Of a stretch of DNA of 64,000 nucleotides, positions 2,896 to 56,367 are shown piece after piece. A program made the position numbers and the translations under genes. The stretch spans positions 13,277 through 77,276 of the forward strand of contig JBOHBN010000006.1 of the NCBI GenBank assembly GCA_050698355.1. Reading direction: 5' to 3'. The stretch's first letter is position 1; each line of letters opens with the position of its first letter. The notes below the pieces were generated by a model, which saw only the letters and a list, made by a program, of their open reading frames with translations, had not been told where the DNA came from and did no database searches. Origin of the DNA: Streptosporangiales bacterium. GTDB lineage: Bacteria > Actinomycetota > Actinomycetes > Streptosporangiales > WHST01.

Positions 2896-4538
2896 GTCCT
2901 GGGCCCCCACGGAAACGCCGAGCTTGCGGAGCGTTTTCGTGGGGTGGGTCGCAGCGACCTGCCGACGTTGGTGGCGTCGCCGCGCGCACCGGTGCCGTCG
3001 CGGGCGATCTTCGACCCGTACGGCGAATCGGTGAGGGCTGGTCGCAGCGGTGTGGCGTTGGGGACCACGTCGGCGATGTGCACGCCCGACATCTGTTCGC
3101 GGACCTGCTCGCGGTAGCCGACCGAGTTGTAGGCGCAGAAGGGGATGATCCGCCCGTCCGGGGTGATCTCCTCCACACAGCACTTCATCAGCTGCTTGAC
3201 GTTGAGCGTGTACGGGTCCTGGAAGTCCTGCACCACGATCATGAACGCCTTGTCCGCCAGTTGTTGGACGGCTTCGGGCAGGTCGACCCCACAGGCTTCC
3301 GCGCAGTTGAACGCCGCCGCGGTCTCCGCCAGCTTCTCGTTCGTGGTGTCGGTGCCCATGAACGCCGACGCGCTCCACAGCTTCTCCAGCGCCTCGCGGA
3401 CGTCGACGTCGGGCATCACCCGGTTGGTGACGTAGTCCAGGTAGTCCTCCACGTTGACCAACCGCGGGATCGGGATCACCGTGGTACGCGGGCCGCTGTC
3501 GTCGACGAGCAGGTAGGTGATCGACCGGCAGGTGGGGAAGCAGCAAGGGACGGGAAAGAAGTCGTCGGCGCGGAACCACTCGGGCAGCTGCTGCGCCGCG
3601 AGCTCGATGACGTCGGAGTTGGTCAGCCGGGTCAGCGGGTCGAACTCGACGTGCCGTCCCGAATGCGTGACGACCTGGAACGACACCGCGCGTACGGCCG
3701 GGTGCTCGATGCCGTAGGCGATGATCGGTCCGATCTCGTGCTCGTTCACGCCGCGTTCCACGGCCGGAACCAGTGTCACCGCAAGGCCGGCCTCGGCGCA
3801 GTTGTCTAGCGCGCGCCGCTTGATCGCACGCAGGTCACGGCCACGGATCCGCTGGTGTGTGCGTTCGTCCAGGCCGTCGAACTGCAGGTAGATGTGCACC
3901 CGGTGGCCAGGCCGGTCGCGCCGCGCGAGCGCGGCGACAAACCGGTTGTCCGTAGCCAGCCTGATGCCGTTGGTGTTCAGCGTCACCGACTTGATCGGCC
4001 GGGCCTGCGCGAGATCGACGAAGTCCAGGATGTGCTTGTGGATCGTCGGCTCCCCGCCGGACAGCATCACCACCTCCGCCTCGCCCTCGCTGGCCACGAA
4101 CGTGTCCAGCATCCGCTCGCACTGCTCCACCGTGATCTGGTAGCCGTCCGGTTGGTGCCCGGAGTCGGCGAAGCAGACCGGGCAGTCCAGGTTGCAGCCG
4201 GTGTTCACCTCGATGATGCCCAGGCACGCGTGCTGCTTGTGCTCCGGACACAACCCGCAGTCATGTGGGCACCCGTCGCGCACCTCGGTCTGGAACTCCA
4301 GCGGGATCGTCCCCGGCTTGTTGAACCGCGCGGACTCCACGTACATCCGCGCGTCGCCGTACACCAGCGCCTCGAACTCGCCGTGCTCACTACAGCGCTT
4401 GCGCAGGTACACCCTGCCGTCGCGGATGTTCACCTGCGCGTCGACGACGACCTTGCACACCGGGCAGATCGACTTGGTGTACTCGTAGAAGACCTCATCG
4501 CGATCCCGCTTGGCTTGTACTGCCGTTGGTTCCAACAC
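2892..4538 (-). CDS. Radical SAM enzyme with N-terminal zinc-ribbon and extra Cys clusters (COG1964-like)
   Basis: GTG start at 4536-4538. CPVC...CSEHG ribbon. CPHDCGLCPEHKQHAC auxiliary-cluster motif. Canonical CNLDCPVC (CxxxCxxC). GGEPT SAM-binding motif. PVPCCFPTC. Confidence 0.85.
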   Translation of the reverse strand: MLEPTAVQAKRDRDEVFYEYTKSICPVCKVVVDAQVNIRDGRVYLRKRCSEHGEFEALVYGDARMYVESARFNKPGTIPLEFQTEVRDGCPHDCGLCPEHKQHACLGIIEVNTGCNLDCPVCFADSGHQPDGYQITVEQCERMLDTFVASEGEAEVVMLSGGEPTIHKHILDFVDLAQARPIKSVTLNTNGIRLATDNRFVAALARRDRPGHRVHIYLQFDGLDERTHQRIRGRDLRAIKRRALDNCAEAGLAVTLVPAVERGVNEHEIGPIIAYGIEHPAVRAVSFQVVTHSGRHVEFDPLTRLTNSDVIELAAQQLPEWFRADDFFPVPCCFPTCRSITYLLVDDSGPRTTVIPIPRLVNVEDYLDYVTNRVMPDVDVREALEKLWSASAFMGTDTTNEKLAETAAAFNCAEACGVDLPEAVQQLADKAFMIVVQDFQDPYTLNVKQLMKCCVEEITPDGRIIPFCAYNSVGYREQVREQMSGVHIADVVPNATPLRPALTDSPYGSKIARDGTGARGDATNVGRSLRPTPRKRSASSAFPWGPRT

Positions 4539-8177: not shown

Positions 8178-8768
8178 TCAGCGCGGGGCACCGGTCCAGG
8201 ACGGGTCGCGGCCCATGGTGGCGACGAGCCGGTCGAGCGGCGAGGCGTCCGCGCGAACCGGCACGGGACGGCCGAACGCCACATCGTCGCCGACGGGCCG
8301 CTCCTCGCCCGGCTGTGGGCCCATGGCTCGGATGCACTGTTCCGCCTGCTCCGGGTCGACGTCGTACGCCTGGCCGGACGCCCGGGCGATGTCCCACCCG
8401 TGAACCGTCGTCTCGTTGAGCGCGACGAGACCGGCGATCTCGCCCGGCAGCTCCACACCGCCCGCGGCGGTAGCGCCCTCCCACGCCGCTCGGTCGCGCC
8501 AGGCTTCCGCCATTGCCAGCAACCGCTCGGGGATGCGGGTGCGCCAGCCGTCCTCGAGCTGGCGAGCATCGCCGGACGGGTTCGCGGTGCCAACCTCCGG
8601 GAACTGCTTGGTCGCGGCATTCGTGAATGCCTGCGCCAGCCCGTCGACGTGGTGCAGGAGATTGCCGAGGCTGTACTGCGGGCACGGTGTGGGCACGGCG
8701 AGCTGCTCGTCGGTGATGCCGGCGAGCAGGTCGCCGCTGCGGCGCGCCGCGGGTACGAGATCGATCAT
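8178..8768 (-). CDS. DinB/MDMPI-superfamily metal-binding protein (TIGR03086-like)
   Basis: N-terminal LAGITDEQLAVPTPCPQYSLGNLLHHV (TPC...H motif). C-terminal LDRLVATMGRDP. Confidence 0.75.
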   Translation of the reverse strand: MIDLVPAARRSGDLLAGITDEQLAVPTPCPQYSLGNLLHHVDGLAQAFTNAATKQFPEVGTANPSGDARQLEDGWRTRIPERLLAMAEAWRDRAAWEGATAAGGVELPGEIAGLVALNETTVHGWDIARASGQAYDVDPEQAEQCIRAMGPQPGEERPVGDDVAFGRPVPVRADASPLDRLVATMGRDPSWTGAPR

Positions 8769-8837
8769 TACGGCTCCTTTCGGCGTGGTCCTCGCAGGTT
8801 AGGACCACGCCGACGCCGCAAACTCATCGCTCGCCCT

Positions 8838-8962
8838 CCGATGACCACGTCGCTCGTTGCCCGAATGACCACGTTATGTGGGGTTGCGCCGCCTTCTCGA
8901 TGCCTGTAGGCCCCGAGAAGGCCGGTTTGGCATCCATAACGTGGTCGTTTGGAGACCGGCGC
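8838..8962 (+). repeat. Family C structured repeat, copy 1 (~125 bp, nested inverted repeats)
   Basis: CCGATGACCACGTC...GAATGACCACGTTATG...GCCTTCTCGATGCCTGTAGGCCCCGAGAAGGC...CATAACGTGGTCGTTTGGAGACCGGCGC. Near-identical to 9322-9443. Confidence 0.85.
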
Positions 8963-8989
8963 CGACGACGTCGCACTCCCGGGTCGCGC

Positions 8990-9304
8990 ATGATGGATCA
9001 TTGCGAGGTGATCCTTGAACATGCCGTCTTGCCCGTCGTGCCTGGCGAGGAGGCGGAGTTCGAAGCCGCCTTCTCCAGGGCCAAAGAGATCATCGCTGGG
9101 ATGCCCGGCTTCCAACAGCTGACCCTGTCGCGATGCATCGAACGGCCGAACACCTACCTCCTGCTCGTCCAGTGGGAGCGGGTCGAAGACCACATCGACG
9201 GCTTTCGTGGCTCACCTCAGTACGAGCAGTGGCGGGCACTGCTGCACCACTTCTACGACCCGTTCCCGACCGTCGAGCACTACGAAGAGCTACTCGCCGT
9301 CTGA
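8990..9304 (+). CDS. Antibiotic-biosynthesis-monooxygenase (ABM) domain protein
   Basis: MMDHCEVILEHAVLPVVPGEEAEFEAAFSRAKEIIAGMPGFQQLTLSRCIERPNTYLLLVQWERVEDH: typical ~100-aa ferredoxin-like ABM. Confidence 0.8.
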   Translation: MMDHCEVILEHAVLPVVPGEEAEFEAAFSRAKEIIAGMPGFQQLTLSRCIERPNTYLLLVQWERVEDHIDGFRGSPQYEQWRALLHHFYDPFPTVEHYEELLAV

Positions 9305-9321
9305 GAGCTACTTGCCAGCCC

Positions 9322-9443
9322 CCGATGACCACGTCTCTTACCGGAATGACCACGTTATGTGGGGCTGCGTCGCCTTCTCGATGCCTGCAGGCCCCGAGAA
9401 GGCCGGTTTGGCATCCATAACGTGGTCATTCGGAGACCGGCGC
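9322..9443 (+). repeat. Family C structured repeat, copy 2 (~122 bp)
   Basis: Same sequence and orientation as 8838-8962 with a few substitutions or indels. Outer stem AATGACCACGTTATG/CATAACGTGGTCATT, inner stem GCCTTCTCG/CGAGAAGGC, apex GCCTGCAGGCC. Confidence 0.85.
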
Positions 9444-9496
9444 AACGCGCGGAAGCGGCGTGGGTGGGCAGCGCCGAGAGTCGAGCCAAACGGGTG

Positions 9497-10021
9497 TCAG
9501 AAGAACCAGTCGATGCGGGCGTAATCGCCGGCGGCGAACTCGCCGAACTGGCCCGAGTAGAAGGTGAGCGGGTCGCCTTCGCGCTCGCAGCTGGCGACGA
9601 CGGCAGCGAGGAAGAGTACGTGGTCGCCCGCGGGGATCTCGCGTTCGGTCGCGCACTCCAAGTGGGCGAGGGCGTCCGGGACGACCGGCACCTTGTGCGT
9701 GCCGTACTCCAGCGGAAGGCCGTCGAAGTGGTCTTCGCCCTGCCGCGCGAACCGCCGGGCGATCTGTTCCTGGCGGGCAGCGACCACGGAGATGGCGAAG
9801 CGCCCGGCCTCCTGCACCGACTCGGTGGTCCGCGCATGTTCCGCGAGGCTGACGAGCAGCAGCGGAGGGGTCAGGGACACCGACGTCAGCGAGTTCACGG
9901 TCATCCCGAACGCGACACCGTCGACCATGGTGGTCACCACCGCCACCCCGGTGGCGAACCGGCCCATGGTGCGGCGGAGCACTGCAGGGTCGATGCCGTC
10001 ACCGAAAGCAGTCATGCCCAC
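9497..10021 (-). CDS. Flavin reductase (HpaC-like NAD(P)H:flavin oxidoreductase)
   Basis: RFATGVAVVTT...GMTVNSLTSVSLTPPLLLVSL, the flavin_reduct family signature. Confidence 0.85.
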   Translation of the reverse strand: MGMTAFGDGIDPAVLRRTMGRFATGVAVVTTMVDGVAFGMTVNSLTSVSLTPPLLLVSLAEHARTTESVQEAGRFAISVVAARQEQIARRFARQGEDHFDGLPLEYGTHKVPVVPDALAHLECATEREIPAGDHVLFLAAVVASCEREGDPLTFYSGQFGEFAAGDYARIDWFF

Positions 10022-11957: not shown

Positions 11958-12428
11958 GTGGCACGCGTTGACCACGGCATGCCACTTCAGGGAGAGTACG
12001 CACCCAGCCCGTCGGCGTGGGCTCGCGAGCACGCCGAACAGTTCGAGAACTCAGGTGGGACCGAAGCAACGACCCTGCGCGGCATGGCGATCGTGCTGCT
12101 GACTTCGGTCGGGGTCAAGACCGGCAAGCTGCGCAAGACGCCGCTGATGCGGGTCGAGCACGAGGGCCGGTACGCGATCGTCGCCTCGCTCGGCGGTGCG
12201 CCGAAGAACCCGGTGTGGTACCACAATGTGAAGGCCAATCCGCGCGTGGAACTCCAGGACGGGACGACAAAGCGGGACATGCTTGCCCGCGAGGTCACCG
12301 GCGAGGAGAAGGCGGTCTGGTGGGCCCGTGCCGTCGAGGCGTATCCCGACTATGCGGATTACCAGGAGAGGACGAGCCGGGAGATCCCGGTGTTCGTGCT
12401 CGAGCCGAAGGACGGGCGGGCGGTTTGA
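11958..12428 (+). CDS. Deazaflavin (F420H2)-dependent nitroreductase family protein (Ddn-like)
   Basis: [56 protein letters not shown] is the family signature. An alternative ATG start is at 11979. Confidence 0.85.
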
Positions 12429-12429
12429 T

Positions 12430-12491
12430 GATCCGTTTCTCGTGGCCGGAACGCGAAGGTTTCTGCGCGCTACGGCCACAGAAAACGGATC
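12430..12491 (+). repeat. Family A palindromic repeat, copy 1 (hairpin directly after a stop codon, between convergent genes)
   Basis: GATCCGTTTCTCGTGGCCGGAACGCGAAGGTTTCTGCGCGCTACGGCCACAGAAAACGGATC. Outer stem GATCCGTTT/AAACGGATC and a GC-rich inner stem. Confidence 0.85.
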
Positions 12492-12500
12492 ATGGTCAGG

Positions 12501-19557: not shown

Positions 19558-19683
19558 ACTTCCCACGATGAGTTCCTGCTCGGCCGAGGCCCCTACCAAG
19601 ATCCGTTTCTTCCGGCCGCGACGCGCAGGTTTCTGCGCGTTGCGGCCACACCGAACGGATCTTGACCTGATCATTTTGGGCTG
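19558..19683 (+). repeat. Composite repeat: family B left flank + family A palindrome (copy 2, 19598-19663) + shared right flank
   Basis: ACTTCCCACGATGAGTTCCTGCT ... AAGATCCGTTTCTTCCGGCCGCGACGCGCAGGTTTCTGCGCGTTGCGGCCACACCGAACGGATCTT ... TGATCATTTTGGGCTG. Lies between convergent genes. Confidence 0.8.
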
Positions 19684-37968: not shown

Positions 37969-38151
37969 CACGGCATTCGTCGTCGGAGCAGGTACGGCAC
38001 ATCTCCCTCGCAGGGAGGGGCCGCTGACTACAGCGGGTGATCCGCCGGGTCGCCGCGACCCTCACCGGCTACCGCGCCAGTTCGCGCCATACCACCTGCG
38101 GCTGGACTGGCTGATGTGGCTGGCGGCGCTGTCGCCCCCGCAGGCGAGACC

Positions 38152-38217
38152 AAGATCCGTTTCTTCCGGCCGCAACGCGCAGAAACCTGCGCGTCGCGGC
38201 CACGCGGAACAGATCTT
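38152..38217 (-). repeat. Family A palindromic repeat, copy 3 (inverted relative to copies 1, 2 and 4)
   Basis: AAGATCCGTTTCTTCCGGCCGCAACGCGCAGAAACCTGCGCGTCGCGGCCACGCGGAACAGATCTT. The central loop reads CAGAAACCTG rather than CAGGTTTCTG. Confidence 0.85.
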
Positions 38218-38273
38218 GACCGGGGACCTGTATGACCGGTTTGCACGCCCAGCGGCGCCCAACCAGGCGGACG

Positions 38274-38335
38274 GACTCAGCTCCTGCTTCCCATGGCCTG
38301 CAGGTCGTGGGAAGCAGGAACTCATCAAGGAAAGT
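38274..38335 (-). repeat. Family B hairpin repeat, copy 1 (inverted relative to copy 2)
   Basis: Reverse complement reads ACTTTCCTTGATGAGTTCCTGCTTCCCACGACCTGCAGGCCATGGGAAGCAGGAG. Stem TCCTGCTTCCCA/TGGGAAGCAGGA, apex CCTGCAGG. Confidence 0.8.
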
Positions 38336-38580
38336 AGCCTGCTTTCGGGCAGTGACTACGGCGCCCTGGTCGGATGACGTGGTGGCGAGGAGCTCGCTGC
38401 CGTCGGCGGTGACGAGCGCCGTGTCGGAGATCGGGTACGTGCCGATCTGCTGGTCGATGACCCACGACTGGACCAGCTGCGCCGAGTAAGGGGGTGTCCT
38501 TGCAAGTAGTACCGCGCGCTGCCAGTGAACTGGGTGGGGTCCACCCCGGGGAGTTTCCCACAGTACGACGCCGGTGAGAC

Positions 38581-44909: not shown

Positions 44910-44940
44910 CACCCGAACGCTCCGTGCCGATGCCCAGAGC

Positions 44941-45006
44941 AAGATCCGTTTCTCCCGGCCGTAACGCGCAGTTTCCTACGCGTTACGGCCATGCGGAACG
45001 GATCTT
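44941..45006 (+). repeat. Family A palindromic repeat, copy 4
   Basis: AAGATCCGTTTCTCCCGGCCGTAACGCGCAGTTTCCTACGCGTTACGGCCATGCGGAACGGATCTT. Lies after the ADH stop and abuts a truncated regulator remnant. Confidence 0.85.
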
Positions 45007-45022
45007 CACCGGGAGGTCTATA

Positions 45023-48373: not shown

Positions 48374-48386
48374 GCCTTGACAGCCA

Positions 48387-48473
48387 ACTTCCCACGGTGA
48401 GTTCCTGCTTCCCACGGCCTGCAGGCCATGGGAAGCAGGAAATGAGTTACATACCGTGATCATTTCGGGCTGG
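48387..48473 (+). repeat. Family B hairpin repeat, copy 2, with both shared flanks
   Basis: ACTTCCCACGGTGAGTTCCTGCTTCCCACGGCCTGCAGGCCATGGGAAGCAGGAAATGAGTT...TGATCATTTCGGGCTG. Confidence 0.8.
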
Positions 48474-54956: not shown

Positions 54957-55775
54957 TCAGTTGAGCGCGAGTGCGGCGTCCGGCTCGAGTACGCGGAACG
55001 TGAAGCTCTCCTCAAAGTAGAGTTGCACCGCGTCGCTGTCGTGGTGGCTGTAGCCGACGGAGATGTCCTGGCCGACGTCGAGCAGGAAGTCGCCGCCCCT
55101 CTCGCTGACCACCACGGCGCCGTCCACGCCGGGAGCCCACAGGATGCTGCCGCCGACGACCTGCTTGAGATGGTCGAAGAGCAGGTGGCCGCCGTGCTCG
55201 GCGGTCTGGATGATCCTGGTGTACCCGGCCGGGCCGATGGCGAGCGCGTACGGCCCGACGATGCCGTTGCACCGCAGCTGGTCGACGGCGCGGGCCACCA
55301 CACCGGGGTACGCGTCGCAGTCGTCGCCGAGCGTGCCCGACCCGTACGGTGAGGCCTGCGCGATGCCGGTGATGCCCGCGGCCGCCCAGCCGTGGAACAC
55401 CGTACGGTTCTCGACCTCGGCGACCTTGCCGGCGGCGCGGGCGAGGTCGTCGAAGTCCGGGTCGCTCGCACCGCGCTGCAGCTCGTCGATCTCCTGCCTG
55501 CTCACTGTGAACGGCACCGTGTACTCGGCGAGCGGCAGCACGCGGCGCTGCTTGGCGGTCACCCCGTCCGTGCTGATGCCCGGCGGGCCGTCGAGCGCGG
55601 TGGTGCGCCCGAGCGACACCGACGACTGCTGCCAGCCGCTGGGGCCCTTCCAGTCGGCCAGCTTGCGGGCGGCGAGCAGCGGTGTGAGCCGTTCGCGTGC
55701 CTCGTCGTCGATCGCTTGCCACGCCACTGTCGGGATGGGCGCGAGGCCACGAAGAAGGTGGTCGCCGGCACTCAC
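54957..55775 (-). CDS. Family 1 encapsulin nanocompartment shell protein (linocin M18 / Cfp29 type)
   Basis: 272 aa, GTG start. Colinear with the M. tuberculosis Cfp29-type sequence from memory (LAPIPTVAWQAIDDEA..., VPFTVSRQEIDELQRGASDPDFDDL, GPYALAIGPAGYT, WAPGVDGAVVVSERGGDFLLDVGQDISVGYSHHDSDAVQLYFEESFTF). Confidence 0.9.
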   Translation of the reverse strand: MSAGDHLLRGLAPIPTVAWQAIDDEARERLTPLLAARKLADWKGPSGWQQSSVSLGRTTALDGPPGISTDGVTAKQRRVLPLAEYTVPFTVSRQEIDELQRGASDPDFDDLARAAGKVAEVENRTVFHGWAAAGITGIAQASPYGSGTLGDDCDAYPGVVARAVDQLRCNGIVGPYALAIGPAGYTRIIQTAEHGGHLLFDHLKQVVGGSILWAPGVDGAVVVSERGGDFLLDVGQDISVGYSHHDSDAVQLYFEESFTFRVLEPDAALALN

Positions 55776-55782
55776 TTGCGCT

Positions 55783-56361
55783 TCACCGCCTTTTCAGGCT
55801 GCCGATGCCGAGCGAGGTGTCCTCGCCTCCGCCGGCGGCCGGGTTGATCTCGGCTTCGACCTCCCGAACGTACTCCTGCGGGGGCTTGTCGGAGGTGTCG
55901 ACCCCGCGGGCGCCCTTGTGGGCCTCGAGGAACTCCGCGAAGTGCTTGCCGAGCGACTCCCGTAGGCCGATGGGCGCGTTCAGGCGGAAGTCCGCGAGCC
56001 CCTCGCGCTCCTCCTCGGCCATGTGGTCGTCGTTGGCCACCCGCGCCCGCCCGACGGCCTGCCACCACTCGTCGCTGCCGACCGGGTGCCGGTCCGCATC
56101 GTGCGCGCCGTCACGGATGTCGTTGTGGTCGTCGATGGCGTCGAGGGTTTCCTCCTCGGGGTCCTCGCCGCGCTTGAGCAGCTGCGGGTAGAAGATCTCC
56201 TCCTCGGCGACGGCGTGCAGGTCCAGATGCGCGGACAAGGGGTCCCACACCGTGCGCAACGCGTCGGCATCGGCGTTGCGCGCCTGCAGCTCGTCCAGCG
56301 CTGCGAACTGCTCGCGGAACCATTCGTGGTCGTCGAGGATCAGCTGGGTGATGTCGGCCAT
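55783..56361 (-). CDS. Hemerythrin-domain encapsulin cargo protein with C-terminal targeting peptide
   Basis: HHE-type motifs (ILDDHEWFREQF, HAVAEEEIFYPQL, DDHNDIRD, HMAEEEREGL). Flexible G-rich linker, then ...EDTSLGIGSLKRR at the C-terminus. Stops 7 nt before the encapsulin start. Confidence 0.85.
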   Translation of the reverse strand: MADITQLILDDHEWFREQFAALDELQARNADADALRTVWDPLSAHLDLHAVAEEEIFYPQLLKRGEDPEEETLDAIDDHNDIRDGAHDADRHPVGSDEWWQAVGRARVANDDHMAEEEREGLADFRLNAPIGLRESLGKHFAEFLEAHKGARGVDTSDKPPQEYVREVEAEINPAAGGGEDTSLGIGSLKRR

Positions 56362-56367
56362 AGACCC

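Follow-up and report, generated by a model that had tools for sequence, protein, structure and literature searches.

A small gene for an antibiotic biosynthesis monooxygenase (ABM; HmoA-like) lies between two direct copies of a palindromic repeat, here called family C, in a 64,000-nucleotide stretch of a Streptosporangiales genome (assembly GCA_050698355.1, contig JBOHBN010000006.1, positions 13,277 to 77,276; hereafter the window). Relative to the closest syntenic relative, locus L011, the repeat-ABM-repeat arrangement is a single presence/absence indel. Family C is best explained, on sequence comparison, as a non-coding palindromic mobile repeat of the kind represented by miniature inverted-repeat transposable elements (MITEs) and repetitive extragenic palindromic (REP) elements. 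That the whole block arrived, or was precisely lost, in one piece is a tentative reading to which we give slightly less than even weight; it covers both a composite bounded by two non-autonomous repeats and a repeat-plus-gene circle captured at a resident copy. The parts of the block are as follows.

8835-8962 (+): family C copy 1, 128 nt, defined by sequence, repeat finder, fold and alignment
8840-8851: box 1 of copy 1, GATGACCACGTC
8861-8878 and 8935-8952: left and right outer arms of copy 1
8891-8899 and 8914-8922: inner arms of copy 1
8902-8911: apex of copy 1, GCCTGTAGGC
tail of copy 1, GGAGACCGGCGC, common to the copies, ending at 8962
8963-9007 (+): non-repeat spacer from copy 1 to the ABM start, 45 nt
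9008-9304 (+): ABM gene, 98 aa, intact; Pfam ABM, E 1.2e-13
9305-9318 (+): spacer from the ABM stop to copy 2, 14 nt
9319-9443 (+): family C copy 2, 125 nt, defined by sequence, repeat finder, fold and alignment
9324-9335: box 1 of copy 2
9344-9359 and 9416-9431: left and right outer arms of copy 2
9372-9380 and 9395-9403: inner arms of copy 2
9383-9392: apex of copy 2, GCCTGCAGGC
8835-9495: block without counterpart in L011, comprising copy 1, ABM, copy 2 and, beside the flavin reductase stop, 52 nt of spacer that aligns poorly

The empty site in a relative

The block is flanked by two genes and by the leader of one of them.

8178-8768 (-): MDMPI_N / TIGR03086 metal-binding protein gene, 196 aa; left flank, divergent from ABM
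8769-8834 (-): MDMPI leader, CGATGAGTT, then a hairpin (8780-8813), then a Shine-Dalgarno sequence; left edge of the block, outside family C
9497-10021 (-): flavin reductase gene, 174 aa; right flank, convergent with ABM

The flavin reductase of L011 is 89% identical to that of the window, and its locus carries, on one strand, HpaB, cupin, flavin reductase, a 93-nt spacer and MDMPI (196 aa). In BLASTN alignments, L011 positions 1-2872 match window 12354-9496 at 90.3% and positions 2902-3559 match window 8834-8174 at 84.4%, so that 29 nt of L011 stand opposite 661 nt of the window (8835-9495). L011 has no ABM gene, no family C copy or fragment and no trace of the ABM spacers. Paired copies thus bound a passenger, and the whole unit is missing from the orthologous site, as in a composite transposon. 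The preliminary description had proposed a cassette-like unit formed by excision or duplication through recombination between the repeats. The unit itself is borne out by L011. L011 is not a simple recombination product, because recombination between direct copies would leave one copy behind and L011 keeps none. The relative is therefore either ancestrally empty at this site or has precisely lost the entire block.

Both edges of the block were inspected. On the MDMPI side, L011 homology restarts 1-2 nt from the outer end of copy 1. The sequence that begins there is a leader of about 65 nt, consisting of CGATGAsTTy, a hairpin, GAAAGGAG and the start codon, and it is conserved in every relative whatever the upstream gene (L011 2902-2964; L015 ~1190-1252; L016 ~3616-3683; L017 ~686-748). 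Its hairpin arms covary (GGCGTGGTCCT/AGGACCACGCC in the window, GGACGGTCGT/GAGGACCGTC in L011), and the leader may be a conserved 5'-UTR regulatory structure or operator. Copy 1 therefore abuts the edge of a selectively protected block. The GACCACG-containing hairpin at 8780-8813 was considered as a part of family C and rejected, because it belongs to this leader in all relatives. A CCTCNGAT / GATC mini-palindrome in L011 was considered as an insertion target and is not relied on, since the alignments there are ambiguous.

Architecture of family C

Global alignment of 8835-8962 with 9319-9443 gave identity at 117 of 128 columns (~91%), with eight mismatches, one 2-nt gap and one 1-nt gap. The earlier account of two same-oriented copies is right in orientation and slightly generous in calling them near-identical. 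The longest unbroken identity is 39 nt, and the differences are concentrated in the spacer from the first to the second ATGACCACGT box. The repeat finder reports the pair as a 106-nt direct repeat (8857-8962 / 9338-9443, 93%), with a second, 20-nt direct pair (8835-8854 / 9319-9338) just upstream of it. Each copy holds the nested inverted repeats described before: outer arms of 16-18 nt (GAATGACCACGTTATG / CATAACGTGGTCATTC; perfect in copy 2, 89-100% complementary overall) enclose inner arms of 9 nt (GCCTTCTCG / CGAGAAGGC), with an apex that reads GCCTG(T/C)AGGC in the window copies. This hairpin core spans ~90 nt of the 125-128-nt units. A third ATGACCACGT box (GATGACCACGTC, at 8840 and 9324), which the preliminary description overlooked, lies on the same strand 21-24 nt upstream of the hairpin; as it is unpaired, it gives polarity to an otherwise palindromic unit.

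The folds are strong. RNA folding gave -69.2 kcal/mol (z -5.5) and -61.1 kcal/mol (z -3.4) for the two copies, and none of 200 dinucleotide shuffles was as stable as either. The arm motif has six matches in the window against 0.56 expected, and the four good ones all fall within the two copies; a motif scan and a short-word BLAST of either copy found no third copy in the 64 kb. No real open reading frame (ORF) occurs in the units, and their open frames are artefacts of the palindromes.

Family C outside the window

Two further family C copies were found, both in Logan assemblies. The first is in L012, whose cupin and flavin reductase sequence matches the window at 93% over 1 kb. Its family-C-like element (GATGACCACC...GAATGACCACCTTATG) lies 32 nt after the same flavin reductase stop and corresponds to the family C left end, with box 1 facing the reductase, in the orientation opposite to that of copy 2. 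The contig ends in GATGACCACCGTCCTTCCCCGAATGACCACCTTATG followed by Illumina adapter AGATCGGAAGAGCACACGTCT (region 1078-1118). The L012 contig thus stops inside the hairpin and retains untrimmed adapter; the palindrome breaks short-read assembly. The second copy, L024, stands alone as a hairpin at an unrelated locus, with a CoxS/CoxG-like gene on one side and a transporter gene on the other. It has no recognisable box 1, its left arm AATGACCACGTTATGTGGGG is identical to that of the window over 20 nt and its interior is diverged. L024 came to light when the translated repeat was compared with 1.84 billion representative proteins and matched a spurious 46-aa ORF (P0361); two other matches from that search were spurious as well.

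Broader searches returned little. The exact-arm pattern GACCACGTTATG-N45-65-CATAACGTGGTC had no match in GTDB species genomes (one genome from each of 185,579 species) and none in JGI metagenomes. A looser two-box pattern likewise had no match in the 185,579 species genomes and found only two unrelated low-GC sequences in JGI metagenomes (L013 and L014), both rejected as family C: L013 is an iteron-like tandem array and L014 a chance match. The L013 array (Ga0307489_10204621, ~380-600, - strand) comprises about nine tandem ~23-nt iteron-like repeats (GTGAAYGACCACCTTAAGCTCAC) on a low-GC metagenome contig and is probably a plasmid or phage replication origin, unrelated to family C. Nothing relevant was found in IMG/VR with a 20-mer common to the window and L024 or with a degenerate arm pattern, nor in PLSDB with blastn. 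Rfam 15 gave no matches in the window at gathering thresholds, and relaxing E to 10 added nothing beyond noise from a microRNA model, which scored 21 bits where the cut-off is 82. On these searches, family C appears to be rare, lineage-restricted and previously undescribed.

Family C also differs among relatives in presence, position and orientation: L011 is empty, the L012 element is inverted and the L024 copy sits at an unrelated locus. Such variability fits a mobile MITE/REP-like element, and the MITE-like mobility suggested earlier gains support from it.

The ABM gene as a putative passenger

The preliminary description had recognized a small ABM gene and read it as 104 aa from ATG 8990. 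The gene is confirmed by its Pfam match, and the start is revised: ATG 8990 is an in-frame upstream alternative, and the most likely start is GTG 9008, which would give 98 aa. Alignment with eight homologues indicates a full-length protein with the usual MILEH... N-terminus and a normal conserved C-terminus. The NCBI counterpart, MGH3094447.1, is called as 91 aa from TTG 9029 and is 99% identical over the shared region; the neighbouring MDMPI protein matches one from the same MAG, on a contig of 78,387 nt, at 100%. A stem, GGATCA (8995-9000) / TGATCC (9009-9014), overlaps the GTG start, with the likely ribosome-binding region inside it. In several ABM homologues, gene calls that extend too far read ...DH(A/C)xV-ILEH upstream, which suggests that a GAYCAY...GTGATC pairing recurs in the ABM family, and a translational control stem is possible. 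The repeat finder also detects a 13-nt direct repeat astride the ABM stop (AGAGCTACTCGCC 9286-9298 / AGAGCTACTTGCC 9304-9316); it did not truncate ABM, as the C-terminus has normal length. No repeat-derived peptide was present in the over-long gene calls of 15 ABM homologues.

ABM looks like an accessory gene in this lineage, because its neighbours have close relatives, ABM has none above 79% and its homologues occupy unrelated contexts. Identity among relatives is 86-92% for the flavin reductase and 79-83% for MDMPI. For ABM, a search of 5.8 billion proteins gave nothing above 79% among the matches listed, apart from the entry of the source metagenome-assembled genome (MAG). All 119 listed non-source matches lie at 67-79% regardless of order, and the family is very conserved. 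The homologues stand in unrelated contexts, and no family C accompanies them: those in Nocardioides currus, a Pseudonocardiaceae MAG and an ENA contig have other neighbours and no copy of the repeat. No conserved synteny around ABM was detected across all fetched homologue loci. An ABM homologue adjoins toxin-antitoxin pairs in two unrelated actinobacterial contigs, namely PhdYeFM/YoeB (L002/L003) and ParE/Phd (L004). Foreign origin by composition was considered and rejected, since the GC content at third codon positions (GC3) of ABM, 0.81, is inside the range of window genes (0.78-0.94); the neighbours have 0.87-0.89.

Comparison with known mobile and repeat systems

The 125-128-nt units are non-coding, have terminal inverted repeats, occur at different loci and show presence/absence at an orthologous site, all of which are MITE characteristics. 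MITE-bounded structures include the integron mobilization unit. They share with the present block two copies of a short non-coding inverted-repeat element around a passenger, the presence or absence of the whole block between related genomes and the lack of a transposase inside it, so that mobilisation must be in trans. Paired MITEs that bound passenger DNA have been described as structures "comparable to that of a composite transposon" (PMC6382973), with examples in a 439-bp Acinetobacter MITE pair around class 1 integrons and a MITE-297 pair around a 76-kb mer region (PMC6382973). On this analogy, a MITE-bounded composite appears to be the closest functional analogue. The block differs from such composites in several respects: its passenger is a single 98-aa housekeeping-type gene and it measures only ~0.6 kb; its copies are ~9% diverged without a visible target-site duplication; family C is almost wholly one long hairpin plus an extra unpaired box; and the setting is the chromosome of an uncultured actinobacterium and not a resistance plasmid.

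The REP/BIME, ERIC and Neisseria Correia (NEMIS/CREE) families are ~100-nt non-coding, strongly folding intergenic palindromes that differ from one relative to another. Often they are co-transcribed and serve to terminate transcription or to stabilise mRNA; REP units measure 20-40 nt, a TA duplication accompanies Correia elements and such families reach hundreds of copies. Family C resembles them as a variable intergenic palindrome of ~100 nt in a genome with several such families. It differs in having no sequence similarity to them and no Rfam match, in being very rare as far as seen, in being longer than REP and in showing no TA duplication. REP/BIME elements are recognized by 20-40-nt palindromes, a conserved 5' GTAG and a RAYT (TnpA-REP) gene. 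The family C unit spans ~90-125 nt, GTAG occurs only in the copy 1 apex and no Y1 transposase (RAYT) is among the window ORFs.

IS26 (820 bp) carries its own transposase, and a circle composed of the element and a gene unites with a resident copy, no new target duplication being formed. The translocatable units and pseudo-compound transposons of IS26 resemble the present block in their end product, a gene between two direct element copies. Family C is non-coding, unlike IS26, and no enzyme is known for it.

An integron-like cassette would make the hairpins attC-type sites and ABM a gene moved by a site-specific tyrosine recombinase, as the attC-like reading of the preliminary description implied. 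Several traits agree with it. The ~90-nt hairpin is within the attC size range (an imperfect palindrome of ~57-141 nt), one short gene is held between direct copies by tight spacers of 45 and 14 nt and the block is absent from L011. The defining sequences argue the other way. An attC site has the core site R'' (RYYYAAC) at its 5' end and closes with R' (GTTRRRY) at its 3' end, the two motifs being reverse complements; a regular-expression search found neither in the two copies on either strand, and the family C arms read 5'-GTTAT...ATAAC-3', the reverse of attC polarity. The perfect 16-18-bp outer stem lacks the R/L box layout. The 64 kb contain neither an attI site nor a cassette array but two copies and a single gene, and the L024 copy is single, between ordinary genes. 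None of the ~59 window ORFs encodes an integrase, tyrosine recombinase or transposase; they belong only to metabolic, regulatory, transport and encapsulin-type families. Cury et al. surveyed Actinobacteria genomes and found a complete integron in none of them (PMC4889954). We consider the integron-like explanation highly improbable, and the attC-like reading does not hold up.

Origin of the block

Two routes could have produced a block that moves as a unit. A putative trans-acting enzyme encoded elsewhere in the genome might act on the outer ends of both copies, as in a MITE-bounded composite transposon. Alternatively, a circular repeat+ABM molecule might recombine with a repeat copy that the flavin reductase-MDMPI spacer already contained, which would resemble integration of an IS26 translocatable unit. 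The L012 element lies in the same spacer and indicates that a family C copy can reside there.

A different explanation is that the components came together by independent events. ABM would be a resident gene or an unrelated arrival, and two dispersed repeats would have inserted separately into its spacers; L011 would lack ABM through an unrelated deletion or would never have had it, and the bracket would be incidental, with the repeats merely intergenic hairpins that terminate transcription or stabilise mRNA. This genome has many palindromic intergenic repeats, with four family A and two family B copies in the 64 kb (see below), and solo family C copies exist (L024; perhaps L012). The ~9% divergence between the copies, the lack of a target-site duplication around the whole block, the left junction at a leader edge that selection protects anyway and the unremarkable GC3 of ABM are also compatible with separate events. 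Against this stands the economy of the unit event, which needs one or two events where independent insertions need three. Both window copies of a rare family stand in the same orientation in adjacent spacers around one gene; with no other copy in 64 kb, two independent adjacent insertions would be an unlikely coincidence. L011 keeps no trace of ABM, its spacers or the repeats, no sampled relative has a close ABM orthologue among the matches listed and ABM behaves as an accessory gene. We regard independent events as doubtful yet far from negligible.

Movement of the block as a unit, the reading that we tentatively favour, has several observations against it. Similarity to relatives begins at 8833-8836 even where upstream genes differ (L015, L016, L017), and a leader edge that is fixed in all relatives makes the sharp MDMPI-side junction weaker evidence. 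The reductase-side spacers of the window, L011 and L012 are ambiguous in free-gap and semi-global alignment. No target-site duplication is found at copy 1, at copy 2, around the whole block or at L024, the element ends being imprecise with 3.5 copies to define them. Flavin reductase and MDMPI are not adjacent in more distant relatives, so that gain in the window and loss in L011 cannot be polarised. The ~59 window ORFs include no partner transposase or recombinase, and none belongs to an insertion sequence with family C-matching ends (CTCCGA(A)TGACCACGT). The repeat-ABM-repeat block was found at no second location in searches that lay outside the other contigs of the source MAG. The divergence of the copies argues against a fresh duplication.

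Because the sequence derives from a MAG, the repeats might also have led to a mis-join, though this is only barely conceivable. In that event, an assembly path through shared repeat k-mers would have threaded a foreign ABM segment into a spacer with one copy or none, and the L012 assembly did break inside this very hairpin. The copies differ at 11 of 128 positions and share no more than 39 consecutive bases, which is shorter than the final k-mers of the usual metagenome assemblers and shorter than reads, and the 78-kb contig is otherwise collinear with relatives. An assembly artefact is accordingly very unlikely.

Possible role as RNA hairpins

Folding of the two strands was compared for the three complete copies (window 8858-8957 and 9339-9438; L024 1838-1932). 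The ABM-sense strand and its complement gave -58.4 vs -46.6, -53.8 vs -52.1 and -55.7 vs -49.5 kcal/mol. Each of the three is thus 2-12 kcal/mol more stable on the strand that runs in the sense of the adjacent co-directional genes, because mismatches in the arms can pair as G-U there; no consistent strand bias in folding is seen in families A and B. The stem is maintained mostly through sequence conservation among these copies, and several one-sided changes are kept as G-U. One stem position reads G-C / G-U / A-U across the three, and no doubly compensated pairs were counted. Once in place, the copies probably form RNA hairpins on the ABM sense strand, and copy 2, lying where the ABM and flavin reductase genes converge, could act as a terminator or as a 3' stabiliser. 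Consensus scans for promoters and terminators over 8600-9700 returned nothing.

Other repeats and genes of the window

Two further families of hairpin repeats occur in the window, which indicates a genome rich in such elements. Family A comprises four palindromic intergenic repeats of ~87 nt that are 66-82% identical to a reference copy and have the layout AAGATCCGTTTCT..GGCCGCAACGCGCAG..CTGCGCGTTGCGGCC..GAACGGATCTT; family B is a pair of hairpins.

12414-12500, 19584-19670, 38138-38224 and 44927-45013: family A copies
38275-38341 and 48381-48447: family B hairpin pair, TCCTGCTTCCCAYGGCCTGCAGGYCRTGGGAAGCAGGA

The preliminary description had taken an apex shared by families B and C, CCTGCAGG, as a hint of a common binding protein or origin. 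This apex is not conserved and is close to chance: among the five B and C elements examined, three deviate from it (family C copy 1 with CCTGTAGG, L024 with CCCGCAGG and the first family B copy with CCTGCAGGT), and GCCTGCAGGC with at most one mismatch occurs 10 times in the window against 5.9 expected, a number that 5 of 100 shuffles equal. The idea of a common protein or origin is not supported. The right flank of the second family B copy (48450-48467, CATACCGTGATCATTTCGG) resembles the family C right arm CATAACGTGGTCATTCGG, a weak hint that could reflect modular or chimeric repeats or chance.

The flavin reductase gene is the final gene of an HpaB-cupin-flavin reductase operon with an HpaB-type monooxygenase. 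Elsewhere in the window (54960-56367, - strand), an encapsulin shell gene (Linocin_M18, E 1.5e-77) lies directly downstream of a hemerythrin-domain gene, and the pair may represent an encapsulin with hemerythrin cargo.

Significance

Family C has gone undescribed, and it is a practical marker, since short-read assemblies break in it, as in L012. A highly improbable but more far-reaching idea is that Actinobacteria have an integron-independent system of single-gene cassettes with family C hairpins as its recombination sites, in which circles of one hairpin and one gene would be captured at resident hairpins by some enzyme. If so, a phylum that lacks integrons would have its own means of shuffling small accessory genes. 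In other respects, family C is one more family in the well-known class of intergenic palindromic repeats. If the block did move as a unit, it would be among the smallest repeat-bounded gene-carrying mobile units described, and hairpin repeats would have carried an ordinary metabolic gene, not a resistance gene, in an uncultured actinobacterial lineage.

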